Shown here: positions 9,082 through 56,828 of the stretch, piece by piece
Position numbering within the stretch: position 1 is the first letter of the stretch
Layout: each line of letters starts with the position of its first letter
Assembly: GCA_000004695.1 (NCBI GenBank)
Contig: CM000155.2
Coordinates: forward strand, 1,792,001 to 1,856,000
Direction of reading: 5' to 3'
Source of the DNA: Dictyostelium discoideum
Taxonomy: Eukaryota
DNA: 64,000 nucleotides
Notes under the pieces: model-generated
What the model saw: only the letters and a program-made list of their open reading frames with translations
What the model was told of the DNA's origin: nothing
Database searches by the model: none
Position numbers and translations under genes: made by a program

Positions 9082-9505
9082 TTCCTTAATTTGTGGAAAT
9101 ATAGGTGTAACTCTGTTTGTAAAATTATTATTAGATCTAGTTCTTTATTTGGAAGGAAATGGTGTAATGAATTTCTTATCAAACAAAGAAATTCATAATA
9201 TTAATAATTGTAATAGTAATAAGAATAAAGTTCATTAACAATTAAACAATAATAATTAAAATAATTATTTATTTATTTAGTTTAATGTATTTTCAGTCGA
9301 CTGAAAATTAAAAAACAGAAAAAAATTAAGCTATTTTTGATTCACGGTTTACAGATTTCTTTTTTTTTTTTTTTAATATTGGATTAACAAGATTGATATA
9401 TGTCCATCTGTGTTAATATACAGATTTCATATTATATTAATTGTGTTTAAATGTGATCAAAAAGGAATCGAACATGCGTTCCTGTTAAATTTTCTATAAA
9501 ATTAT

Positions 9506-9578
9506 CGCCTAGACATGGGATCGAACCATGGACCTAGCGGTTAACAGCCGCTCGCTCTGCCTACTGAGCCATCCAGGC
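9506..9578 (-). tRNA. tRNA-Asn (anticodon GUU)
   Basis: The reverse complement is identical to the plus-strand copy at 41377..41449: GCCTGGATGGCTCAGTAGGCAGAGCGAGCGGCTGTTAACCGCTAGGTCCATGGTTCGATCCCATGTCTAGGCG. The anticodon loop is CTGTTAA. A B-box-like GTTCGATTCC sits 33-42 nt downstream in tRNA sense (plus coordinates 9464-9473). Confidence 0.9.
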
Positions 9579-9612
9579 ATTTTTGATGTGAATTGATGAA
9601 ATATTGAAAATT

Positions 9613-33662: not shown

Positions 33663-34024
33663 AAAGAATTTTAAATAAATTAATATTCTTTGTATTTTTT
33701 TTTAAAAATCAAAAAAAAGTTTTATTTCTTTTTTTTTAAAAAAAAAAAAAAAGTGTCAGATTTGAATGTTTTTATCATATTAATATAAACCTAAAAAAAA
33801 TGGTTTTGGAAACAACATAATATAATTTTTTTGGAAAATAATTTCGAATCTTTCATGTTTTATTTTTTTTTTATTTTTTTTTTTTTTTTATTTTTTTTGT
33901 TTTTTTGTAAAAGATATGATGCCAAAATGTGAATAGAAGTTCATGATTTTAAAATTTTATTTAAATTTAATTTTTATTTTATTTTTTTTTTTTGTAAAAA
34001 ATTTTTTTTTTCAAAAACATTTCA

Positions 34025-34061
<37 letters not shown>

Positions 34062-34094
34062 ATTTAAAATAAAAACATATTACATACAAATAAA

Positions 34095-35141
34095 ATGAAT
34101 AAAATTTTAACTCGTAGTTTTAGTACTGGTGCAAATTTCTTTGCCTCTGGTAAAGGTAAAGCACCAGTTAGAGTTGCCATTACTGGTGCCAGTGGTCAAA
34201 TTGGTTATCAATTATTATTCAGAATTGCCAGTGGTGATATGTTAGGTAAAGATCAACCAATCATTCTCCAATGTTTAGAATTACCAGGTGCAATGAACTC
34301 ATTAAAAGGTGTTTCAATGGAATTGGATGATTGTGCATTCCCATTGCTCAAAGGTATTGTTCAAAGTGATAAACCAGAGGAAGCATTCGCTGGTGCAGAC
34401 TATGCATTATTAGTTGGTGCTCGTCCAAGAAGCAAGGGTATGGAGCGTGGTGACCTTTTAAAAGCAAATGCTGAAATTTTCTCTGTTCAAGGTAAAGCAT
34501 TAGACAAAAGTGCTAATCGTGACACTTTAAGAGTTTTAGTTGTAGGTAACCCAGCCAATACCAACGCATTAATTGCCGCCCGTAATGCACCAAATATTGA
34601 CCCAAAACGTTTCTCTGCCATGACTCGTTTAGATCACAACAGAGGTTTAGCTCAATTAGCCGATAAAACTGGTTCAGCCGTAACTGATATTGAAAAATTC
34701 TGCATTTGGGGTAACCACTCTGCCACCCAATACCCAGATATTAACTTTGGTACCGTCAAAGGTAAATCACTCGTAGATACCATCAACGATCAAAAATGGG
34801 TTAAAGATAACTTTATTCCAACCGTTCAACAAAGAGGTGCCGCTATTATTGCTGCCCGTGGTTTATCATCAGCTGCCTCTGCTGCTTCAGCTGCCATCGA
34901 TCACATGAGAGATTGGACCTATGGTACCAATGGTCAATGGACCTCTATGGCCATTTACTCTGAAGGTGAATATGGTGCCGATAAAGGTCTCTACTTCTCT
35001 TTCCCAGTCATTGTAGATAACAAAGGTAAATACGAAATCGTTAAAGGTCTTAAACTTGATCAATTCTCTCAAGAACGTTTCGATGCTACTCGTAAAGAAT
35101 TATTATCAGAAATGGATGGTGTTAAAGAATTATTACCATAA
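34095..35141 (+). CDS. malate dehydrogenase (NAD, LDH/MDH type 2) with N-terminal extension
   Basis: A 348-aa single exon. It carries the [11 protein letters not shown] Rossmann motif, [43 protein letters not shown] and the catalytic His in GNHS. The N-terminal [19 protein letters not shown] looks like a mitochondrial or other targeting presequence. Confidence 0.95.
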
Positions 35142-35271
35142 ATTAAATTTTAAAAATAAAAATAATAAATTTTTTTTAAAAAAAAAAAAAAATAAAAAAA
35201 AAAAATAAAATAAAATATTTTATTATTATTATTATAATAATATCATTATTTATTTATTTATTTTATTTTAT

Positions 35272-36150
35272 TTATTCCATAATCCAACCATGACTAACTA
35301 ATAATGATTGACCAGTTAAACATTTATTTGGAATTGAAGAAAAGTTAACAGCAACTTCAGCAACATCTTCAACTGTTGTGAATTCACCATCAACAGTTTC
35401 TTTTAAAAGGATATTTTTAGTGACTTGTTCTTCAGTGATATTGAATTTCTTTGCTAAATCTGGAATTTGATTTTTAACCAATGGAGTAAGTACGAAACCT
35501 GGACAAATTAAATTTGCACGAATGTTATGTTTTGCACCTTCACGAGCGACACCACGACATAAACCTTCCAAACCATGTTTGGCAGTTACATATGGTATTT
35601 TGTATTCTGATGCATATTTACTATGAACACTACCCATATATAGAATTGTACCACCACGTTTAATATCCTTTTTAAATTCTTGCATTGCATATTTTGTACA
35701 TAAGAAAGCGCCATCTAAATGAACGGCCATCATTTTTCTCCAAGTTGCCAATTCAACGGTTTCTAATGTTTCAATATGTTGTAAACCTGCATTCGACACA
35801 ATCACATCCAATCCACCAAATCTTTCAACTGTGTCTTTAATACCCTTTGAAACTTGTTCCTCATTTGATACATCACATTCAACAGAAATCGTTGATCCTG
35901 GAAAACGTTGATTTAATTCTTTTGATGCATTATCAGCTTTGGTTTTATCTAAATCTACAATTGCAACTTTACCACCTTCTTTAACAAATCTTTCAACAAT
36001 TCCTAAACCAATACCTGATGCTCCACCTGTTACAAAACAAACTTTTTTTTCCATTCTACCATTTTGATTTGTACTATAATATCTAATGGTTGATTGAATA
36101 AATTGTTTATTATTTGTATTATTTGTTAATTTTTTAATTAAAAAATTCAT
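35272..36150 (-). CDS. short-chain dehydrogenase/reductase, bacterial-type D-3-hydroxybutyrate dehydrogenase-like, with a putative mitochondrial presequence
   Basis: A 292-aa single exon containing TGGASGIGLGI, NAGLQH, the YVTAKHG catalytic Y-x3-K, and ICPGFVLTPLV. Similarity is highest to bacterial BDH, as far as I can recall those sequences. The N-terminal roughly 35 aa are basic and hydroxylated (MNFLIKKLTNNTNNKQFIQSTIRYYSTNQNGR). Confidence 0.8.
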   Translation of the reverse strand: MNFLIKKLTNNTNNKQFIQSTIRYYSTNQNGRMEKKVCFVTGGASGIGLGIVERFVKEGGKVAIVDLDKTKADNASKELNQRFPGSTISVECDVSNEEQVSKGIKDTVERFGGLDVIVSNAGLQHIETLETVELATWRKMMAVHLDGAFLCTKYAMQEFKKDIKRGGTILYMGSVHSKYASEYKIPYVTAKHGLEGLCRGVAREGAKHNIRANLICPGFVLTPLVKNQIPDLAKKFNITEEQVTKNILLKETVDGEFTTVEDVAEVAVNFSSIPNKCLTGQSLLVSHGWIME

Positions 36151-41157: not shown

Positions 41158-41376
41158 AAATATAAAAAAAGATTAAAAAATTAAATAATAAAAAGGTAAA
41201 TTAAAAAATATTTTTTTAAAAAACTAACAATTCATATTATAAAAATAAATTTTTAATTATTTATTTATTAAATGTAAAAGAAATCATAAATTAAATAAAT
41301 TTATATTTTTTTTCAAGTTGATTATTTTACAATGTATATAATTTTTTTACATTTTTGGTGAAATTTCATCAAAAAT

Positions 41377-41449
41377 GCCTGGATGGCTCAGTAGGCAGAG
41401 CGAGCGGCTGTTAACCGCTAGGTCCATGGTTCGATCCCATGTCTAGGCG
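41377..41449 (+). tRNA. tRNA-Asn (anticodon GUU)
   Basis: GCCTGGATGGCTCAGTAGGCAGAGCGAGCGGCTGTTAACCGCTAGGTCCATGGTTCGATCCCATGTCTAGGCG. Acceptor GCCTGGA/TCTAGGC with one GU pair, anticodon loop CTGTTAA, T-arm CATGGTTCGATCCCATG. Confidence 0.9.
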
Positions 41450-41712
41450 ATACTTTTTTATTTTCAATATCATTTTTTTTTTTATCTTAAAAATGGATTC
41501 TCTACATCGAGACCTTTCAAAATATCAAAAATTCATCAGAATTGGCCAACGTTGAAAAAAGTTAATGCCTTTTTTTTATAATAATTAATTGATTGGTTAA
41601 AAAAAAAAAAAAAGAAATTTTTTTTTTTATTTTCACCATTTCAAAAAAAAAAAAATAAAAAACATATTGGTCTAGATTCAGTGAAATTGTTAAATTAAAA
41701 TATAAAAATAAA

Positions 41713-44360: not shown

Positions 44361-44431
44361 GCGTATGTGGTCTAGTGGTATGATGCATCCCTGCCACGGA
44401 TGCGAACTGGGTTCGATTCCCAGCATACGCA
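44361..44431 (+). tRNA. tRNA-Gly (anticodon GCC)
   Basis: GCGTATGTGGTCTAGTGGTATGATGCATCCCTGCCACGGATGCGAACTGGGTTCGATTCCCAGCATACGCA. Anticodon stem CATCC/GGATG with loop CTGCCAC, T-arm CTGGGTTCGATTCCCAG. A T6 terminator follows at 44436-44441. Confidence 0.9.
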
Positions 44432-44639
44432 CATCTTTTTTGAAGTTTACAGGATTTCCGAACTTCGGATGGGGTGAAAAATAAAGAATTTTACAAAGTT
44501 TGTCAAAACTGAAAATAAAAACATTTTTTTTGTTTTTCTAAAAAATCAATTAAGTTTTCATTCTTTCAAACAAATACCACATTGTTTTTAATTTGGATAA
44601 AATTATAATTTATAGTAAATAATAAAAAAAAAAAAAAAA

Positions 44640-45480
44640 TTGTAAATTATTATTACTAAACTTTTGGACTTGCAAATTTGATAATAGCTCTTGATGTAAT
44701 GTATGATTGTCAAATTATAATTGCAGGTTTGAGTAATAGTTTAAATATTTGATCAGAAATTATCGCTGAAACAATTGTCTCAAATGCTGGTTCACTGAAA
44801 TCAGTATCCAAGAGAGTTATTAGATTTCCATAATTTACACATTTAATCCCCATTCAAGTTTTCTTTGTGGAATCTAAGATTTGAAACAGGTCGTGGAAAA
44901 CTTTATGAACTAGATTCAACAATAAATTTAATAAAAATAATGAAAAAAAAATTAGAAGGGAGATAAATTCCAAATATTTTTTTGTATTTATTTATAAAAT
45001 TTTATAAAATTTTTAGAGTGAAAAATAATAATTTTAAATCAGAAGTTAAACCATTTTATTTTTAGAATTTAATTGTTTGGGAACACTATAATTTACAGAA
45101 CCATATGAATAATTTTTTTCTATTTTTGTCATATTCAAGAGTTGATAGTTTGTACCATTTGTTAATGCCGTCATGATTCCATAAGGGAAGTTTTAGGATA
45201 GGTCATGGTTTATACATATATATACCCATTCAAAGTATTCTTTGTGGAATCTTAAATTTGTGTAGTCTATGTTAACCTCTGACCCTTCTTCATATTTGGT
45301 AGAATTATAGGTGTAATCCTTTTTATAAATTTATTGTTGAATCTAGTCCTCTCGTTGGTCCAATGTTTTCATGAAAAAGAAGTTTTTCGGTTTTGGTCCA
45401 AAATTTAATAATTAAAGAATAGATGAACTAAAGGATCAATTAAAGCATCAGAAACCAATTATATTACCTCATCTCGCCAA
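44640..45480. mobile_element. non-AT-rich spacer between the convergent tRNA-Gly genes with internal direct repeats; candidate degenerate tRNA-associated (TRE3-like) retroelement remnant
   Basis: Composition is distinctly less AT-rich than the surrounding intergenic DNA. There is a 35-bp direct repeat, cccattcaagttttctttgtggaatctaagatttg at 44848..44882 and cccattcaaagtattctttgtggaatcttaaatttg at 45225..45260. No long ORF is present. Its position downstream of both tRNA genes is where TRE3 elements integrate (established biology). The identity of the element is not established from sequence. Confidence 0.3.
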
Positions 45481-45564
45481 AAAAGCTGTGAATATCAATT
45501 CAAATCAGACGTACAAATATATTTTTCCGAAGTTCGGAAATTTCGAAGCCATTAAAAAAGGTTT

Positions 45565-45635
45565 TGCGTATGCTGGGAATCGAACCCAGTTCGCATCCGT
45601 GGCAGGGATGCATCATACCACTAGACCACATACGC
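45565..45635 (-). tRNA. tRNA-Gly (anticodon GCC), identical inverted copy
   Basis: An exact reverse complement of 44361..44431, placed convergently 1.1 kb away. Confidence 0.9.
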
Positions 45636-45695
45636 TTTTTGATATAATTTTGGAAAAAATAACGAAATGCCATTTTTAAAATATTGTGTATAATA

Positions 45696-45749
<54 letters not shown>

Positions 45750-45995
45750 TTTTTTTTTTTTTTTTTTTTAAATATTGATTAATAACAGTTTATCAATTAA
45801 AGGAAATAAACGATATTTTAAAAGTTTTATTTATTGAATTTAATTATTTTTTTTTTGTATAGAAGTTATTCTTTTTTTGATTCGAATTTTTTTTTTTTTT
45901 TCAAAAAAGGGATTTGAACTGGTTTTTTTTTTTTTTTTACCTAAAAGCGGTGTAGGGGATTTGAACTGGTGACCTTAGTTTTTTCATTAAAAAAG

Positions 45996-46066
45996 TGCCG
46001 CGACCTGGAATCGAACCAGGGTCAACAGAGCCACAATCTGATGTACTACCACTATACTATCACGGC
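45996..46066 (-). tRNA. tRNA-His (anticodon GUG)
   Basis: The reverse complement is GCCGTGATAGTATAGTGGTAGTACATCAGATTGTGGCTCTGTTGACCCTGGTTCGATTCCAGGTCGCGGCA. The anticodon loop TTGTGGC is identical to human tRNA-His, and the T-arm is CCTGGTTCGATTCCAGG. Two B-box-like copies (CCAGTTCAAATCCC in tRNA sense) lie downstream at plus coordinates 45955..45974 and 45909..45922. Confidence 0.85.
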
Positions 46067-46483: not shown

Positions 46484-47573
46484 TTAAACTTGTTGGTAAC
46501 CTTGACCTCCGGTACCAGTGACTTTAGATTTGATGAAGAAAACACCATCCTTAATTAAACCACCAAAATTAACCCACATTTCTTTATTTGGGAACATATC
46601 TGAACCGTGTTGATGTTTAACTTTGGCATTGAAAATAATACCACCAACAATGTAAACAACAGTAACTGATAATAAACTAATAATAATGATAATAATAATA
46701 ATAAATTTAAAAAGAAAAATAAATGTGGTTAGGTTTTTTTTTTTTTTTTTTTATGAAAATAAACTTGATAACAATGAAAATAAAAAAATAAAAAATACTT
46801 ACATGATAATGAAAATCCAACCACCACCAATACCACCTTTCTTTGGTTGATCACCACCATTGCTACCGCTATTATTGTTATCACCACTACCACTACCACC
46901 ACTACATAAATCTTTACCGGACATGACTGTAGAATAAATACATTTATTTTCATTGACAAGAGTTGCTTGAATTGAGTTGGCATTTTGACTACATTGTAAT
47001 GAAACTACCATTGTTCTCATGTTACCACTTGAACATTTAGAGCTAGTGGTATATTGAAGACTTGGTAAATTACTAACTGTTTGCCAACTGCCCATAGTAA
47101 TCAAACCAACAGGTGTTGGAGGACTTGTTCCACCAACTTGCATTTGACAAGCTGCTGCAGCATCATTTTTACATTGAGTTGCTACACCACAAATATTCCA
47201 ATAGTATCTATATTTACCTTGAGGATTTGTACCTGATACTGCACTTAAAGCTGAATAACTTCCACTGTAATTTATTTTTTATATTTTAACATTAAAAAAA
47301 AAAAAAAAAGTATTAATAAGTTTTTACTTTTTTATAGTAATCATTATTATTATTATTTATTATTATTTTTTTTTTTTTTATAGTTATTATTATTATTATT
47401 ATTATTATAATTTTTTTTTTATTTCTCATTGCAAAAATTAAAAAATAAAATAGTACATACTTTGATAAGGCACCATAGTTGATACCATTGTGTGTACATT
47501 GTGATGGTGATCCTTGACCAAATGCCATTGTGGCAATTGCAAGTACTAATAAAATACTGGCAATAAATTTCAT
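46484..47573 (-). CDS. type I membrane protein with one MRH (mannose-6-phosphate-receptor homology) domain
   Basis: Three exons: join(47461..47573, 46803..47264, 46484..46676), for 255 aa. Exon 1 is the signal peptide MKFIASILLVLAIATMAFGQG, then an aa|GTATGT donor. Exon 2 (acceptor ttacAG) has the MRH cysteine pattern: YYWNICG...C...AACQ...LG...SSKCSSGNMRTMVVSLQCS...NENKCIYSTVMSGKDLC. A Gly/Ser/Asn linker follows, then the start of the TM segment GGIGGGWIFII and an at|GTAAGT donor. Exon 3 holds the rest of the TM segment LLSVTVVYIVGGIIF and a 45-aa cytoplasmic tail. Confidence 0.75.
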
Positions 47574-48041
47574 TTTTATTTATTGTTTTATTTTATTGAT
47601 TAATTTAGAAAAAAAAAATATTACAAGAAAAAGGGGTAAAAATAATTATGCTTTCAATCAAAAAAAAAAAATTTAATGTCAAAAAAAAAAAAAAAAAATA
47701 GAAAAATCCCAACAATTTTCAAAAAAATAAAAAAAAAAAAAAAAAATAAAAATAAAAATAAAAAAAAAAAAAGAATTTTCTGTGCCACTTTGTTATATAT
47801 AGTTTAAATTTTTGAGCTAAATGAGAATTTGGAATCGTAAAAATAAAAAAAAATTAAAAAAATGAGGTGGTAAAAAAAAGATAAAAATAAAAAAATAAAA
47901 ATAAAAAATTAAAATAAATTGAAATCAATGGAATTCATTTAAATTATTTATTTTTAATTCTTATTTATCTTTTATTTCTCTTATTTAATATTTTTTCTTT
48001 TAACCTGGTCAAATTCCTTGATTTTTTTATTTGAAATATTT

Positions 48042-48072
<31 letters not shown>

Positions 48073-48388
48073 CTTTTTGAATTTTTTTTTTTTTTTTTAC
48101 CAAAATCAATAAAAAGAACTTGAATCCATTTTATTTTTATTAATGGAACCATTTTTTTTTTTTTTTTGATTTTTTTTGATTTTTTTTTTTTGATGACGTT
48201 ATTTAACAAGACTTTGTTTATTTATAAACAAATATAATAAATTAAATAATTTACTTTTAAATTAAATAAATTAATAATTCTTCGTCGGTTAATAAATATT
48301 TTTTTTCATTTTTTGTTTTTAATTTTTTTTTTTATAAAAATATCTCTTACCTTCACTTTCCCAATTCCTAAAAATATCTATTTTTTTT

Positions 48389-48420
<32 letters not shown>

Positions 48421-48464
48421 TTTTCTTTCAATTTATTATATATTTTTTTTTTTTTTGAATAATA

Positions 48465-49967
48465 ATGAATAATAATATTAAACTTAATGAATTAATTTTT
48501 AATGAAATTGAACCATTATTAATTTATAATTGTTCATTTAAAAGGATATTAGAATTATCATTATTATCAAAATCAATATTTAAAAAAATTCAATATCAAA
48601 TTTCAAATCAACAAAAAGAAATTAAATTTAAACCAGAAATTAATGAATTTTTAAATTATATTTATAATTTTAAAAAAAATGATAATAATAATAAATTTAA
48701 TTCATTTAATGAACCAATAATAAATAATGAATTAATTTCAACAATTTTAAATAATAATAATAATTATAAATTTAAATTAATTCAATTTAAAGAAATTGAA
48801 AATTTAAATTGTATTAATAATAATGGTAGTTATCAAGCAAAACAAAATAATGAAAATATTAAAACCAATTTAAAAAGAATTTGTAAAAATTTAAAAACAG
48901 TTTATTATTCAAATTATTTTCCAATTGATACTTTAGATGAAGATCCAACACTTGATAATTTTTTTAATTTTGAAAAAGTTGAACTTTATTGGGACTGTGA
49001 TGAATCACCACCAGAATCATTCATTGATGAATGTGATAACCAAGATGATTATCAATCATTTAATTACTCATTTGAATTTTTAAAAAGATATAAATCAATA
49101 AAGAAAATTTCAATTAGAACTGTAGATAATGAATCAAATTTACATTTAAAAAATTTAAATAATTTATTTAAAAATATTAATAATATTAATCAATTAAATA
49201 AAATTCAATTCAATTATCAAAATACTTCATATAATTTTTTAATAAATGAAAAATTAAATAATATTAAAAATTTAAATTCATTTTCAATTAGATTAGGTAA
49301 TTTTGGTTTAAATATTATAAACGAAGAAAATGAAGAAAATCAAGAAAATGAAGATTTGGAAATATTAAATGAAATAATTAATAATAATTGTGAAAATACT
49401 TCTAAATTAATTGAAATTATTTTTAAAAATATTAACTTATTAAAAAATAATAAATTAAGGAAATTAATAATTAATAAATGTCATTCTGATGATAATGAAT
49501 TTAATTCACCAAATTCAAATAATCCATGTGAATTTTTAAAATTATTATTAAATGAAAATTATTCAATAGAAAATTTAAGAATTTTAGGTTTGGCTGTATA
49601 TGATTTAACTAAATATGATGATTTTAAATTATTATCAGAATTAATTAATAAAAATAATAAAATTAATCAATTAATTACAAATATTCAATCATTTGAACAA
49701 TTTTTAAAACATTGTAATGAAAATAAAAATATTGAAATTTTAAAAATTTCATTAGATAAATATTCAGATAATTTAGAATTATTAAATAATATAAATTGGG
49801 AAAATATTTTAAATTTAATAAATAATAATAAATCATTAAAATCAATTTATTTATATAATAATGATCAATTTGATGAAAATTTACAATTTCTAAATAATTT
49901 AAATTCATTAAAAAATAATAATAATAATAATAATTTAAATATTACAATTTTAAATAATTTTAAATAA
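48465..49967 (+). CDS. Asn/Leu-rich hypothetical protein (500 aa), leucine-rich-repeat-like
   Basis: A single ORF with very high Asn/Ile/Leu/Lys content and recurring L..L..N..L motifs. Its 3' half is duplicated in fragments downstream (51196..51427 and 52431..52880). Confidence 0.55.
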   Translation: MNNNIKLNELIFNEIEPLLIYNCSFKRILELSLLSKSIFKKIQYQISNQQKEIKFKPEINEFLNYIYNFKKNDNNNKFNSFNEPIINNELISTILNNNNNYKFKLIQFKEIENLNCINNNGSYQAKQNNENIKTNLKRICKNLKTVYYSNYFPIDTLDEDPTLDNFFNFEKVELYWDCDESPPESFIDECDNQDDYQSFNYSFEFLKRYKSIKKISIRTVDNESNLHLKNLNNLFKNINNINQLNKIQFNYQNTSYNFLINEKLNNIKNLNSFSIRLGNFGLNIINEENEENQENEDLEILNEIINNNCENTSKLIEIIFKNINLLKNNKLRKLIINKCHSDDNEFNSPNSNNPCEFLKLLLNENYSIENLRILGLAVYDLTKYDDFKLLSELINKNNKINQLITNIQSFEQFLKHCNENKNIEILKISLDKYSDNLELLNNINWENILNLINNNKSLKSIYLYNNDQFDENLQFLNNLNSLKNNNNNNNLNITILNNFK

Positions 49968-50217
49968 TTTCCCAAAAAAAAAAAAAAAAAAAAATAAAAT
50001 TATATTTATAGAATTTTTATAGTGCAATTTTTTTTTTTTTCCCAAAAATAATTTCGAGAGAAGACAAAAATAGTAAAAGTTTTGGTTTACCAAGAAAAGG
50101 TAGAGTAACAAAATATTAAAACAAATTAGGAATGACAAATAGAAATTATAATCTTAGGGAACTATGCTCAAAACAAATAATGATATATTTATTTTAATAG
50201 GGTTTTTTAATTGTTTT

Positions 50218-50580
50218 TTAATTTAAACATGGTTCATCTTTAATGTCTATTTTAGAAAAATTTGAGTAAACTAAATCTATGGCATCTTTAAAGGTTTTTA
50301 GGTGGTTCATATTTGAAATTTGTAAATTTAAATTACTATTTTTTTCAATTAATTCCTTTTTTTCTTCTTCTAGTAATGCTTTACCTTGTTCTAATTCAGA
50401 TTTAACTTGACTTAATTTTTTTATATCACATCCCAAATCTGATATTTCCTTTTATTAATCAAATTCTTTGCAAAAATAATAGAATCACCTTCTTTTGAAT
50501 TTAAATTACGATTCCAACCACGTGGTCTATCTGGAGTTACTCTATTTACTAAATCATCAAAATCTTCCATTTCTAAATAT
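50218..50580 (-). pseudogene. possible small coiled-coil gene disrupted by a frame change
   Basis: The minus strand 50580 to about 50441 reads MEDFDDLVNRVTPDRPRGWNRNLNSKEGDSIIFAKNLINKRKYQIWDVI*. An overlapping frame then continues MGCDIKKLSQVKSELEQGKALLEEEKKELIEKNSNLNLQ... (track ORF 50218..50436). The two parts are offset by one base, and no canonical intron joins them. Confidence 0.2.
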
Positions 50581-50690
50581 TATTTAGTTTTTTTTTAAAA
50601 AAAAATTTATATCAAAAAATAAAGATTTCAAAAAAAATTGATCAAAATTTTTTTAAAATTTTTGAAAATTTTTTAAAATTTTTGGAAAAT

Positions 50691-50900
50691 TTTTTTACAT
50701 AATTTTTACATAACATTTACATTTAAATATTATTTAATATATAGTTATTAAAAAAAAAAAAATGAATTTTAAAGAGCAGAGGCTTCAACATTATAAAATT
50801 TCTAGTGTTCTACCTTTTTCCACTTTTGTAAAAAAAGGGGTATTTTTTAATAACTATATATTAAATAATATTTAAATGTAAATGTTATGTAAAAATTAAT
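50691..50900. repeat. perfect roughly 55-bp inverted repeat (foldback) with about 85-bp spacer
   Basis: The left arm ...aatttttacataacatttacatttaaatattatttaatatatagttattaaaaaa (about 50706..50760) is the exact reverse complement of the right arm ttttttaataactatatattaaataatatttaaatgtaaatgttatgtaaaaatt (about 50845..50899). Confidence 0.8.
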
Positions 50901-51042
50901 TTCCTTTCCTTTTTTTTAATAATTTCCATATTAAAATAACATTTTAATAAAATTACAAATTTCAAAATAAAAAAAAAAAAAAATAAAAAACAAAAAAAAA
51001 AAAAAAAAAATAATAATAATAATGATAGTATAAAATTTCTTT

Positions 51043-51112
51043 CTATGTAACTATTTGTAAAATAAACTTTTCAAATAAATTAAAATTATTTATTTGAAAA
51101 GTTTATTTTACA
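51043..51112. repeat. 30-bp perfect palindrome arms with about 9-nt loop
   Basis: ctatttgtaaaataaacttttcaaataaat + taaaattat + ttatttgaaaagtttattttacaaatag. Confidence 0.8.
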
Positions 51113-51195
51113 AATAGTTAAATAATTATTTTAATGTATATTTTTCAAATTAATTATTTTTAAAATTGGAAGCTTGGCCCAGAAATTATATTTTT

Positions 51196-52880
51196 TGGTT
51201 TAAATATGATAAATGAAGAAAATGAAGAAAATGAAGATTTGGAAATATTAAATGAAATAATTAATAATGTGAAAATACTTCTAAATTAATTGAAATTATT
51301 TTTAAAAATATTAACTTATTAAAAAATAAAAATAATAAATTAATAATTAATAATTGATAAAGAAATTAATAATTAATAAATGTCATTCTGATGATAATGA
51401 ATTTAATTCACCAAATTCAAATAATCCTGTAACAACTGGTGGTCGGTTTCATCAGTGTTAGTTTTTCCTAATGATTTTTTTATTGTGTTGGTTATTGCTG
51501 CTGAAGTTATTGGTGTTGTAATGTTTGGGTGATGATGGTGGTGTTGAATGGTTATTTAATTGTTGTTGAGATTGTTGATTTATTAATTGAATGTGTTGTT
51601 GAAGAAGTTGATTTTGTTTATCTATTACCTGCTGATGTTCCCTTATTTGACGTTGCTGTTCATTGAATGTTGATACCTTTGGTTGTTGTTGTTGTTCCTC
51701 ATTATCCTGTTGTTGAGATTCATTATTATCAATATCTTCATTATTATTATTGTTGTTATTATTATTATTATTTGACATTCTTTTAAAATAAATTATTTAA
51801 TAAAATTGGGTTATTTATTATTATTAATTTAATTTATTGTTTTAATATTACTGAATTTATTTATTTTATTATTATAAAAATAAATGATTAATTATTTAAG
51901 AAATAAATGTACACATATATTTAATTGATGACCATATCCCTATCGCGTTTTTATTATTTTTAACTATTTATTACTGAGGTTAAATTAGAAACCTAGTTTC
52001 TTTTTATAGTCCTCAGATTTGAGCGAACTCAAATCTGTTAACTACTCCAACCTCAGCAGATAGGGTTAGATCCAATTTAAACTACAATATTATATTATTT
52101 TAATTTTTAATTAAATTATTTTTAAATTTATATTATTATTTTATATGATGATTTTGTGTGTGTGACATTTTTAATATCTGGTATATAATATCTATTGTGA
52201 AAACTTTTTTTTATTATTTTCTGAATTGTGTGTGTTATAATAAAATGTTTAAACAAAACTATATTCTAAATTATTATTATTTATTTTTTTGAATTATTAT
52301 TTAGTTGTGTTTAGTGAGTTTATTATATAAAATGAAACAATTTATTAAAATAAATTAAGTTAGTAATAATTAATATTGAATTATTAATTCAATATTAATA
52401 GTTATTTTTAAATGTTCTGTTTAGAACATTAAATGATAATTATTCAATGGCAAATTAAAGAATTTTATTTTTAGCTGTATATGATTCAACTAAAAATGAT
52501 GATGATTTTAAATTATTATCAGAGTTTATTAATAAAAATAATAAAATTAATCAATTTGTTACACATATTCACTCATTTGAACAATTTTTAAAACATTGTA
52601 ATGAAAATAAAAATATTGAAATTTTAAAAATTTCATTAGATAAATATTCAGATAATTTAGAATTATTAAATAATATAAATTTGGAAAATATTTTAAATTT
52701 AATAAATAATAATAAATCATTAAAATCAATTTATTTATATAATAATGATCAATTTGATGAAAATTTACAATTTCTAAATAATTTAAATTCATTAAAAAAT
52801 TATAATAATAATTTAAATTTTAAAATTTTAAATTTAAATAATTTTTAAAAAAAAAAAAATTATATTTATAGAATTTTTAT
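51196..52880 (+). pseudogene. fragmented duplicate of the 3' half of the 48465..49967 gene, interrupted by a roughly 1 kb insertion
   Basis: Segment 51196..51427 is about 90% identical to 49301..49530 and lacks one 9-bp gaagaaaat unit. Segment 52431..52880 is about 90% identical to 49545..50030, including the stop codon and 3' flank through tatagaatttttatag. The two pieces are contiguous in the original gene but are separated here by 51428..52430, which contains a minus-strand Q/N-rich ORF (51458..51778) and a 10-bp-stem hairpin cagatttgag-cgaa-ctcaaatctg at about 52006..52029. The identical antisense track ORFs 49675..49908 and 52559..52792 reflect this duplication. Confidence 0.7.
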
Positions 52881-52976
52881 AGCCATAATAATTTGTTTTT
52901 TTTTTTTTTTTTCCTCGTTTTAAAGTTCTTAAAATTTATTTAACCAAGAATTAAAAAATTTTAAAATAAAAGGAAT

Positions 52977-53019
<43 letters not shown>

Positions 53020-53103
53020 CGTTTAAAAGTTTCTTGTTTTTTTATTTTTATTATTTTATTTTTTTCGGAACTGAAATAAAAAACAAATAAAAAAAAAAAA
53101 AAT

Positions 53104-54081
53104 ATGAATAATGTTAGCGATGAAGAAATAGATGATGTTTCAGATGATTATGTTGGTGAGAAGCCAAAGAATGACGAGGATTTTTATAGTGCAGATAGTG
53201 ATATTGAAAAGTTAACTCACAAAAACGAGGATGACATCGAACCAAATCCTTCACTCTCTCAAAAAGATGATGAAAAAATACAAAAACAACAACAACAACA
53301 GCAACAGCAACAACAACAACAACAACAACAAAGTAAAGATATTAGCATCAATTTGGACGAATATCAACAAGAAACAGATAGTGAGGAGTATGATTCTGAT
53401 TATATCGATGATATGGATTCTGACGAATATGAAGAAAAGTGTGAAAATGATAGAGAAAAAGACAATTTATATGAATTAGAAAATGAAGAAAGAGATGAAA
53501 AATTTGGTATTGAATACATTAATACCAATACTGCAAATAAAAATAATAATAATAATAATAATAACAATATAGTGGAAGTTTCACTATATGAAAGATTACT
53601 AAAAAGAGATTTCAATAGATACAATAAAAGTGATATAAACACTAAAAATAATATAAATAATAAAAATAATATTAATAATAATAATAATAATAATAATAAC
53701 AATAATAATAATAATAAAAGAAAAGATTTATATATATATAGTAGTAGCGATAAAGAATTAAACAATAATATAATTAAAAGTTCTTTATCTAATCTCTTTT
53801 TCGAAGAAGAGTGTGAGGCTGATAATGAGGAAGAAGAAGATGAAGAAGGTGATGATAAAGGTATTAAACAAAGAATTAAAAGATATCAAGATATTAAAAA
53901 TAGTAAATTAATAATTAAAAGAGCAAAAAGTTTAACACAAGGTATCATATTGGATCCTATCGATCCAACAATTAAAAATAGTTTTCAACAATATCTAATT
54001 CAAAGAGAATTAAAACAAATAAAAGTAAAAAATAATAAAAATAATAGTAATAATGATAGTAATGACGGCAGTAGTAATAAT

Positions 54082-55427: not shown

Positions 55428-56828
55428 TTATTTCTTTTTTTTATTTTTAGGATTTAAATTATCATTTATAGTATTTGTTGTAGTAGAAGTAGTAGAAGTG
55501 GTTGATCTTGTTATAATTTTTCTTTTTAAATTTTCTTTTTCATTTTTTAAATTTTCTTTTTCATTTTTTAATTCAATTTTTAGATTATTATTATTATTAT
55601 TTTGATTTATTTCTTTTTTAATTTTAATATTTTTTGATTTTTCTTTAAATACTGATAATTCATTTGCAAAGAGTATAGTTTGAGCCCAACCTGCATGATC
55701 ACCGAAAATAGATTCCCAAAGGTTACTAATGTCTTGATAGAGTTTTGGAGTTAATGAAGAGGAGCTGTTTGCTAGAGAGGGTAGATATTTTTTAGAGATT
55801 TGATAGATATGAGTATCGATTGCAACGGCATTTGGATTATCCATTGACATTAGTGATACGCAATCAGCGACTTTCTTACCAACACCCATTAATGTTGTCA
55901 ACTCTTTTTGTACCTCTAAATGTGGTTTTAATTTCAACTGATTTAACCATTGTTCACCACCTTTTTCAATAACTTGTTTACATGATTCAACAATGTATTT
56001 TGATCTGTACCCGAATCCAAGATCATTCAATTCTTCTACTGTCGCATTTGACAATTGACTCAATGTTGGAAATTTATAATAATCCGTGTGATTGTAATCT
56101 GTGATTTTCGAACCGTACCCCACGATTAACTTATTCACAAGTGATGTAATTCTTGAGACATTATTATTTTGTGAACAAATGAAGCTGAATAAACAGTCAA
56201 CTGGATTCTGTCTAGTTAGACGAAGTCCGATGAATTTATCACAACTTTTTCGAAATTGGTGGTTTAATTGATGAAGTTTCTTATCACCGTTGTCATCATT
56301 GCCAATTTCATCGTTTCTCCATTTTTTAAATAATTGATTAATATCTAAATCTAGATAAAAGTAATTCTGTAAAGTTGAGATCCTATCTTGCATTTTCATT
56401 AATTCACTATCATGATTTATACGTTTCTCTGAATCTATGAATTTATATTCAATAATATCTTGTTCACTACCTTCTTTATATCTTAACACAATTATATTAT
56501 CACCAATAACTCCCACATATTCATTAACTATTTCATTTATTACTATTTCTTTCCAAATAAATGATTGTGCTGAAAATAATGTTTTTTTTAAATCTAATTT
56601 ATTTTTAAATAATTTTAATTCTTCCCAATTATTATTATTATTATTATTATCATTTTCATTTTTTATTATTGGTATTTTATTGTTATTATTATTATCATCG
56701 TTTTCATTTTTTATTTTTGGAATTTTATTAGTAGTAGTAGTTGTCATTTTAAATAAAATTTCTTTTTTTGTAGTTGTTGGTATTAATATTAAAAAATTAT
56801 TAAATTGTTTAGGTATAAATCTAAACAT
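55428..56828 (-). CDS. ogg1: 8-oxoguanine DNA glycosylase / AP lyase (OGG1)
   Basis: A 466-aa ORF. The helix-hairpin-helix/GPD core LRLTRQNPVDCLFSFICSQNNNVSRITSLVNKL...LGFGYRSKYIV...LMGVGKKVADCVSLMSMDNPNAVAIDTHI...GDHAGWAQTILFANEL matches human OGG1 almost motif for motif, including the catalytic Lys in GVGKKVAD and the Asp in AIDTH. There are N- and C-terminal low-complexity extensions. Translation may begin at the second Met (MTTTTTNK). Confidence 0.9.
   Translation of the reverse strand: MFRFIPKQFNNFLILIPTTTKKEILFKMTTTTTNKIPKIKNENDDNNNNNKIPIIKNENDNNNNNNNWEELKLFKNKLDLKKTLFSAQSFIWKEIVINEIVNEYVGVIGDNIIVLRYKEGSEQDIIEYKFIDSEKRINHDSELMKMQDRISTLQNYFYLDLDINQLFKKWRNDEIGNDDNGDKKLHQLNHQFRKSCDKFIGLRLTRQNPVDCLFSFICSQNNNVSRITSLVNKLIVGYGSKITDYNHTDYYKFPTLSQLSNATVEELNDLGFGYRSKYIVESCKQVIEKGGEQWLNQLKLKPHLEVQKELTTLMGVGKKVADCVSLMSMDNPNAVAIDTHIYQISKKYLPSLANSSSSLTPKLYQDISNLWESIFGDHAGWAQTILFANELSVFKEKSKNIKIKKEINQNNNNNNLKIELKNEKENLKNEKENLKRKIITRSTTSTTSTTTNTINDNLNPKNKKKK

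Follow-up and report, generated by a model that had tools for sequence, protein, structure and literature searches.

In a 64,000-nucleotide stretch of Dictyostelium discoideum DNA (NCBI GenBank assembly GCA_000004695.1, contig CM000155.2, forward-strand positions 1,792,001 to 1,856,000; hereafter the window, whose numbering is used unless another locus is named), the F-box gene DDB_G0292612 is followed by an interrupted relic of its own 3' part. We consider, with a probability of about 0.8, that this relic arose by a partial gene duplication in the AX4 lineage, and that the dead copy was then hit by a long terminal repeat (LTR) retrotransposon, of which a truncated solo LTR remains. The AX4 locus reads, in order, the 5' half of the gene, copy A (49301-50040), a spacer termed X (50041-51192), the left piece of copy B, the insert, the right piece of copy B and the original downstream flank (Table 1).

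A duplicated and interrupted gene segment

An earlier note, made from the letters of the window, had described two collinear pieces, about 90% identical to the 3' half of the gene and separated by about 1 kb of unrelated DNA, and had read them as a segmental duplication followed by an insertion event. Positions 51000-53000 were compared by BLASTN with the 64-kb window and analysed by a repeat search. Three BLASTN matches recovered the duplicate: 51193-51430 matches 49301-49529 at 87-89% identity with indels (E 1e-55 to 1e-62), 52428-52859 matches 49547-49986 at 92.6% identity over 443 columns (E 3e-180), and 52856-52882 is 100% identical to 49996-50022, the last 27 nucleotides (nt) of the 3' flank. 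The repeat search revealed a 300-nt block at 98% identity, and the final 70 nt ahead of the left junction of the insert agree at 99%. Identity between copies A and B reaches into the non-coding 3' flank, and the homology of copy A to the ancestral flank stops somewhere in 50022-50040.

The left junction of the insert lies exactly after CAAATAATCC (51427), where the earlier note had placed it, and the right junction can be placed anywhere from 52427 to 52430, owing to a 3-bp ATT microhomology. Two features had gone unmentioned: copy B lacks 24 bp of the gene (49526-49549) at the right junction, and 1.17 kb of unrelated DNA, spacer X, separates the intact gene from copy B. Copy B is a pseudogene with frameshifts and a stop codon. 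Its left piece has suffered deletions of 4 and 9 bp and a slippage insertion of 23 bp and can be read only by switching between three frames; the right piece contains an in-frame stop (NDNYSMAN*). The 23-bp insertion, at 51316-51356, resembles a local slippage duplication of AAATTAATAATTAATAA.

Comparison with orthologous loci

Orthologous loci were collected through the 90% cluster of the F-box protein, which gave L001 (GCA_054883475.1), L002 (GCA_054859355.1, another 'D. discoideum' assembly) and L003 (GCA_054859205.1, D. cf. discoideum). L001 is 99.6% identical to the window and its structure is unchanged. L002 and L003 contain a single copy of the F-box gene; the gene next to it, ~0.2-0.3 kb downstream, is orthologous to the 769-aa gene located at window position 53104. 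The interval from ~50041 to 52430 is entirely missing from both, and beyond the repeat only the downstream copy B is collinear with them.

In a four-way alignment of copies A and B with L002 and L003, six sites group the two copies against the two relatives, one groups copy A with L002 and copy B with L003, and none supports the remaining pairing; 26 changes are private to copy B and 5 to copy A. These site patterns and private changes indicate that both copies go back to a single sequence that was duplicated once AX4 had diverged, and that copy B has decayed since. The copies are adjacent, direct and collinear, they include non-coding flank, and they are absent as a pair from the relatives, which establishes, as far as sequence comparison goes, a duplication specific to the AX4 lineage. 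The segmental duplication of the earlier note is thus upheld by the single-copy state of L002 and L003, by the six derived substitutions common to copy B and the AX4 gene, and by the identity into the 3' flank.

The divergence of L002 from AX4 is ~4% in this gene segment and 8-10% (indels counted) over the wider flanks (window 47000-54000). It equals or exceeds that of 'D. cf. discoideum' and is high for conspecific strains.

The spacer and the origin of the two-copy layout

Spacer X is unique among all the DNA fetched and is missing in L002 and L003. No remnants of transposable element (TE) proteins were found in it. The possibility that it is a diverged copy of the 5' half of the F-box gene was rejected, as it has no similarity to that half. 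The annotated gene DDB_G0292614, wholly inside X, matches nothing but itself among 5.8 billion proteins, and metagenome contigs yielded no relative. It is an orphan or de novo gene, unless the annotation is an artefact. X also contains a perfect 56-bp inverted repeat (50700-50755 and 50843-50898, with an 87-nt spacer; -75 kcal/mol, z = -12), which has no match to the known Dictyostelium microRNAs of PMC4894637. The repeat is identical in L001. Its arms are perfect although the pseudogene beside it has decayed by 5-10%, and it may thus be recent, homogenised or maintained, perhaps as a hairpin-RNA locus. An 82-bp near-palindrome, 92.7% self-complementary, lies at 51044-51124, ~70 bp ahead of where the pseudogene begins.

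X itself might have caused the duplication, as captured or mobile DNA whose insertion produced a ~0.74-kb target-site duplication through wide staggered breaks or a replication template switch. Such an event would account for the exact repeat-X-repeat geometry in direct orientation and for the joint absence of X and the duplicate from the outgroups. X is flanked by a T13 run, which continues the ancestral flank, and by TTTTGG of the gene, and on the minus strand, which carries its open reading frame (ORF), A13 follows. However, X was not encountered a second time among the fetched loci, contains no TE protein, lacks terminal repeats and has no AATAAA ahead of its A run; the T run belongs to the ancestral flank as well and therefore does not count as a sign of a poly(A) tail. 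The data are explained just as well if T-run microhomology gave rise to a tandem duplication and X was inserted during or after it, and we regard a duplication driven by the insertion of X as unlikely.

The two-copy layout might alternatively be ancestral, the single copy of L002 and L003 reflecting deletion of X and one copy by direct-repeat recombination. Direct repeats of 0.7 kb suit such a deletion well, and just two outgroup genomes were available. Nevertheless, for this history the outgroups would each have to have lost the pair, or their common ancestor would; it sits poorly with the six sites at which copies A and B share a derived state, compared with one and zero for the other groupings, and 0 of the 26 changes specific to copy B are present in L002 or L003. 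We consider it quite improbable, and retain a duplication within the AX4 lineage.

A dispersed insert with defined ends

The insert that splits copy B has no second copy in the window except for AAT-type low complexity (BLASTN). Its whole sequence is present at 87-97% identity in L004 and L005, the loci of paralogues of its 106-aa ORF, and complete solo copies elsewhere measure 1.11-1.16 kb. In L004, L005 and L009 (the last from the L002 strain) the unit starts with TGTAACAAG and finishes with GTTGTTACA, and is bounded by perfect 5-bp target-site duplications (TSDs). The termini are of the TG..CA type, TGTAACAA...TTGTTACA, forming an 8-bp terminal inverted repeat, in these three copies as well as in the 5' LTR of the element at L007.

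In the window copy, the GTTGTTACA end (U5 side) is intact at 51428 and the U3-side end lacks 55 bp, so that only the ...TTGTTACA terminus is retained. The expected AATCC duplicate is missing together with the 24 bp of target, the ATT microhomology marks the junction, and a further 131 bp are deleted internally near 52215. The empty site is present in copy A, L002 and L003. Insertion into the duplicate, as the earlier note had supposed, is borne out by this empty site and by the dispersal, defined termini and 5-bp TSDs of the sequence elsewhere; the copies at L004, L005, L009 and L007, with their TG..CA ends, supply the termini that the note had left to be checked.

The L004 copy sits in an array of zf-B_box/FNIP genes. 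Next to it (L004 1-549 and 1951-4607) lie several thug-S hairpins as well as a Tdd-4-like ORF in which SPXX repeats are arranged in tandem. In L001, an annotated 132-aa spliced gene (13417-14381) spans the LTR remnant and the right pseudogene piece and is very likely a spurious model.

The insert as a probable LTR of a gag-pol element

The locus L007 (D. cf. discoideum; locus of the protein P0021) contains an insert-like sequence followed at once by TGGTAGCTTCTCT, and then by a gag ORF with a CCHC knuckle (zf-CCHC). Beyond gag come a D-S-G protease motif and matches to RVT_1, RT_RNaseH, Integrase_H2C2 and rve. The 522-aa integrase ORF of this element gave no chromodomain (Chromo) match. At its 3' end the last 346 bp of the LTR are repeated at 97% identity, ending TTTGTTACA, and TTTTT stands on both outer flanks. 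The sequence TGGTAGCTTCTC(T), resembling a primer-binding site (PBS), directly follows the LTR terminus in L006, L007 and L008. Only the last ~140 bp of the LTR, with gag, are found in L006 and L008, where they lie within DIRS-like arrays and provide no clean second full-length copy. Because the same sequence forms the 5' LTR of L007, and because the junction of its terminus with TGGTAGCTTCTC recurs in L006 and L008, the insert is most simply read as a solo LTR whose sense strand is the minus strand of the window. At the level of sequence, its 5' LTR position in an element with gag, reverse transcriptase (RT), RNase H and integrase (IN) is demonstrated.

The arrays of L006 (6578-12690) show a 4.66-kb repeat periodicity, in which a tyrosine-recombinase/RT (DIRS-like) unit alternates with the gag fragment P0019 on the opposite strand. 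A 61-nt motif (ATTTTTAAGAAAATAAAAACGTATAAATAGTGGCAC...) occurs three times in the same interval.

The termini and TSD had also fitted a non-autonomous cut-and-paste DNA transposon of the Tdd or Ginger2 type, mobilised by an integrase-like transposase. TGTNR termini and 5-bp TSDs are reported for TDD-4 and TDD-5 (Ginger2; PMC2836005) and are likewise shared with thug-S, the insert family has its 8-bp inverted repeat TGTAACAA/TTGTTACA, and the surroundings of the L004 copy include both thug-S copies and the Tdd-4-like ORF with SPXX repeats. Such termini and TSDs are found equally in gypsy LTRs and do not discriminate. The gag-pol context overturned this candidate: in an element of the order gag-RT-RNaseH-IN the sequence is found at the place of the 5' LTR, with TGG... 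directly after it, its ORF runs on as gag, and its last 346 bp recur at the 3' end of the L007 element. In addition, TDD-4 and TDD-5 carry terminal inverted repeats of 260-297 bp rather than 8 bp (PMC2836005) and encode an integrase-like transposase without RT, and the insert shows no sequence similarity to the Tdd-4-like DNA in L004. A DNA transposon is therefore very unlikely. Identity with thug-S was likewise rejected: the insert does not contain the marker miRNA_can_D3 (PMC4894637), its best-matching site differing at 5 of 23 positions, and the true thug-S copies at L004 1951-4607 carry it with 1-2 mismatches.

The genome is ~78% A+T with many AAT repeats, and self-BLASTN gave many weak low-complexity matches, but the chance that the two 'copies' are independent low-complexity or paralogous AT-rich sequence is negligible given that the pieces align collinearly, at 92.6% identity over 443 nt with 98% over 300 nt, and on into the non-coding 3' flank, that copy B groups phylogenetically with the AX4 gene, and that the insert is dispersed. 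The earlier note had stated that a unique insert flanked by such independent pieces would undo its reading; the insert proved to be dispersed and the pieces related.

The ORF as the probable start of gag

The 106-codon minus-strand ORF that the earlier note had listed in the insert is present, and is rich in glutamine and asparagine (Q/N-rich). Its paralogues in AX4 and the sister assembly are P0007, P0008 (DDB_G0271474) and P0009, and an exhaustive HMMER search with P0007 added the relatives P0011-P0017. The relatives end ...TNTIKK.L....DDTDH.LL at the element terminus, after which the sequences are unrelated. The window ORF is frameshifted near its end, reading KKIIRKN* against KKSLGK.NTDDTDHQLL in intact copies. 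The frame runs on for ~270 aa in P0012 (DDB_G0294302), P0019 and P0021, and in P0019 and P0021 the same N-terminus extends as a gag of 270-370 aa. The ORF is accordingly annotated here as the predicted first ~105 codons of gag, beginning inside the LTR, and the question whether it is a fragment of another gene finds its answer in this continuing frame. For annotation hygiene, the 106-aa 'gene' and its paralogues (e.g. DDB_G0271474, ACTFIT_010762) would be best treated as LTR-borne gag starts and not as host genes.

Hairpin region and palindromes

The perfect 10-bp hairpin of the earlier note is present at 52014-52023/52028-52037. It belongs to a 171-nt stretch (51915-52085, minus strand) with a fold of -51.4 kcal/mol (z = -7.6) and nested helices at 51938-52065. 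This region is near-identical in three AX4-lineage copies, with a compensatory change in 0 of 42 pairs, and L007 keeps the outer helices only. No tRNA was found in it by ARAGORN and no Rfam family at the gathering threshold or at E <= 10, and a literature search with the hairpin sequence returned only unrelated human primer matches. A box C/D small nucleolar RNA reading of 51920-51988 was rejected, as the putative box C is not conserved and is TAATGA in L004. Since the hairpin region lies in the LTR upstream of gag, a promoter or leader role in the element is plausible.

The palindromes described earlier are also present (52369-52399 and 52412-52430). They are not structures of the right-edge junction, since the window copy has lost the true end of the LTR together with 24 bp of target; they recur as internal LTR sequence in all copies. 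Both the hairpin and the AT-rich palindromes thus appear to be ordinary conserved internal parts of the LTR.

Proposed history of the locus

We infer here in which order the events took place, how LTR-LTR recombination left a solo LTR and where X came from. After AX4 split from the two relatives, a segment of 0.72-0.74 kb, comprising the 3' part of DDB_G0292612 and its 3' flank, was tandemly duplicated, and the 1.17 kb of orphan DNA of X lies at the junction of the copies. The upstream copy, still joined to the 5' half, remained the working gene, while the downstream copy, with the original flank but no 5' half, decayed by frameshifts and a stop codon. A Ty3/gypsy-type LTR retrotransposon would then have integrated into the dead copy at ...AATCC in antisense orientation, and LTR-LTR recombination would have reduced it to a single 1.1-kb LTR. 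A later deletion of ~84 bp at the ATT microhomology would have removed the U3 end, the expected 5-bp target duplication and 24 bp of target, and the LTR also underwent the 131-bp internal deletion. The sequence of segmental duplication and then insertion that the earlier note had proposed is supported by the single-copy relatives, the shared derived sites and the mobile insert with TSDs elsewhere.

Several observations weigh against this history. Gene conversion between copies A and B could also yield shared derived sites. The 3' LTR of L007 consists of the last 346 bp only, and no copy with a complete LTR pair was seen. L007 has no polypurine tract, its integrase ORF running straight into the truncated 3' LTR; we attribute this to a deletion in the L007 copy. 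A match to TGGTAGCTTCTC was found in none of the six window tRNAs, and the initiator tRNA-Met is put forward as a candidate primer purely by analogy. In the window copy, the target duplication is gone along with the U3 end. An account in which X is uncharacterised mobile or captured DNA that made the ~0.74-kb duplication and brought in DDB_G0292614 and the 56-bp hairpin is unlikely. Separately, the LTR may belong to an untabulated gypsy family of the D. discoideum group with Ty1-like placement of ~105 gag codons and PBS.

The locus is an instance of ordinary genome turnover and implies no new biological mechanism. Its value is mainly for annotation, as the 132-aa gene call of L001 overlaps the LTR and the pseudogene remnant, and DDB_G0292614 lies in lineage-specific orphan DNA. 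It also provides, for the AX4 lineage, a dated case in which part of a gene was duplicated, decayed and was then struck by a retrotransposon, and it draws attention to an LTR family whose LTRs are unusually long.

Table 1 Features of the duplicated locus and copies of the insert family. Positions refer to the window unless a locus is named.
Feature	Position	Strand	Evidence or remark
F-box gene DDB_G0292612, intact, 500 aa, duplication source	48465..49967	+	Exact protein match XP_629523.1 / Q54CZ7
Copy A: last 667 nt of DDB_G0292612 and 3' flank, into T13 run	49301..50040	+	Self-BLASTN, repeat search, alignment
Spacer X, 1.15-1.17 kb of AX4-lineage-specific orphan DNA	50041..51192	.	Missing in L002 and L003
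DDB_G0292614, annotated orphan, 93 aa, one intron	50218-50580	-	Wholly inside X
Copy B, left piece, pseudogene, equivalent to 49301-49525	51193..51427	+	Self-BLASTN, repeat search, alignment
Insert, predicted truncated solo LTR, Ty3/gypsy-type	51428..52430	-	Collinear with complete solo copies and L007 5' LTR
Q/N-rich ORF, 106 aa, predicted degenerate N-terminal part of gag	51458..51778	-	Homologues P0007-P0009, P0011-P0017
Conserved, strongly self-complementary LTR region	51938..52065	-	160-290 nt upstream of gag ATG
Copy B, right piece, pseudogene, equivalent to 49550-50022, then ancestral downstream flank	52431..52900	+	
Solo copy	L004 9164-10326		1163 bp; TSD AAACT
Solo copy	L005 9234-10190		957 bp; TSD CAATT
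Complete solo copy, L002 strain	L009 2088-3195		1108 bp; TSD ATTTA
5' LTR of near-full-length element	L007 9266-10338		1073 bp; collinear with insert over full length

Surroundings in the window

The window is ~78% A+T, with coding sequence rich in poly-N and poly-Q. A protein match identified the ORF at 55428-56828 on the minus strand as the 8-oxoguanine glycosylase gene, and together with the exact match of the F-box protein this assigns the window to D. discoideum chromosome 6, AX4-type. Six tRNA genes (Lys, two Asn, two Gly and His) lie at 2633-2707, 9505-9579, 41376-41450 and 44361-46066, three of them within 1.7 kb, and a GC-richer block (33% G+C) occupies 34001-36000. These tRNA genes and the GC-richer block are possible landing sites for tRNA-targeted retroelements.

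Comparison with known systems

The duplication resembles partial tandem gene duplications that leave a 3' gene relic, in which the copies are direct, collinear and adjacent and the copy without the 5' half degenerates. It differs in the 1.17-kb orphan spacer at the junction, with its own annotated ORF and perfect hairpin.

In yeast Ty1, the gag frame opens within the 5' LTR, and the gag ORF contains the primer-binding site (PMC4974528). Ty1 further resembles the insert family in that a solo LTR carries an ORF reading out through its end and in the 5-bp TSD, but is of the copia type, with IN before RT, in contrast to the gypsy order here. The 334-bp LTR of Ty1 holds few gag codons, as opposed to ~105 in the 1.1-kb LTR of the insert family. 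The Ty1 PBS, TGGTAGCGCC, has the same first seven bases as TGGTAGCTTCTC.

Among elements of D. discoideum and its relatives, the DGLT-A type (dictyostelid Ty3/gypsy elements without a chromodomain, PMC5006619) shares with the insert family the order gag(CCHC)-protease-RT-RNaseH-IN, the GPY motif, the lack of a detected chromodomain, the TGG directly after the left LTR and the occurrence of solo LTRs. However, the LTR of DGLT-A measures 265 bp against 1.07-1.16 kb in the insert family (PMC5006619), and its PBS, TGGCGACATCGTCTTTC, lies 2 bp after the LTR, compared with the PBS-like TGGTAGCTTCTC at 0 bp. Dd_DGLT-A is found 13-33 bp upstream of tRNA genes, whereas the solo copies of the insert family have no tRNA gene within 3-10 kb. 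For the window LTR copy, the nearest tRNA gene is 5.4 kb away.

Skipper-1 and Skipper-2 (DGLT-P) are likewise Ty3/gypsy-type LTR retrotransposons of the same host, and Skipper-1 has DIRS-rich surroundings, as do the gag-fragment relatives in L006 and L008. Their LTRs are shorter (390 bp in Skipper-1 and 208 bp in Skipper-2, against 1.07-1.16 kb), and both carry a chromodomain, in contrast to the L007 integrase ORF, in which none was detected. Skipper-1 has a polypyrimidine tract in place of the TGG of the insert family, and Skipper-2 lies downstream of tRNA genes, unlike the insert family. By these tabulated features, the family does not fit any of the three D. discoideum LTR families of PMC5006619. 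Set apart from them by description, it is possibly an undescribed gypsy family with long LTRs.

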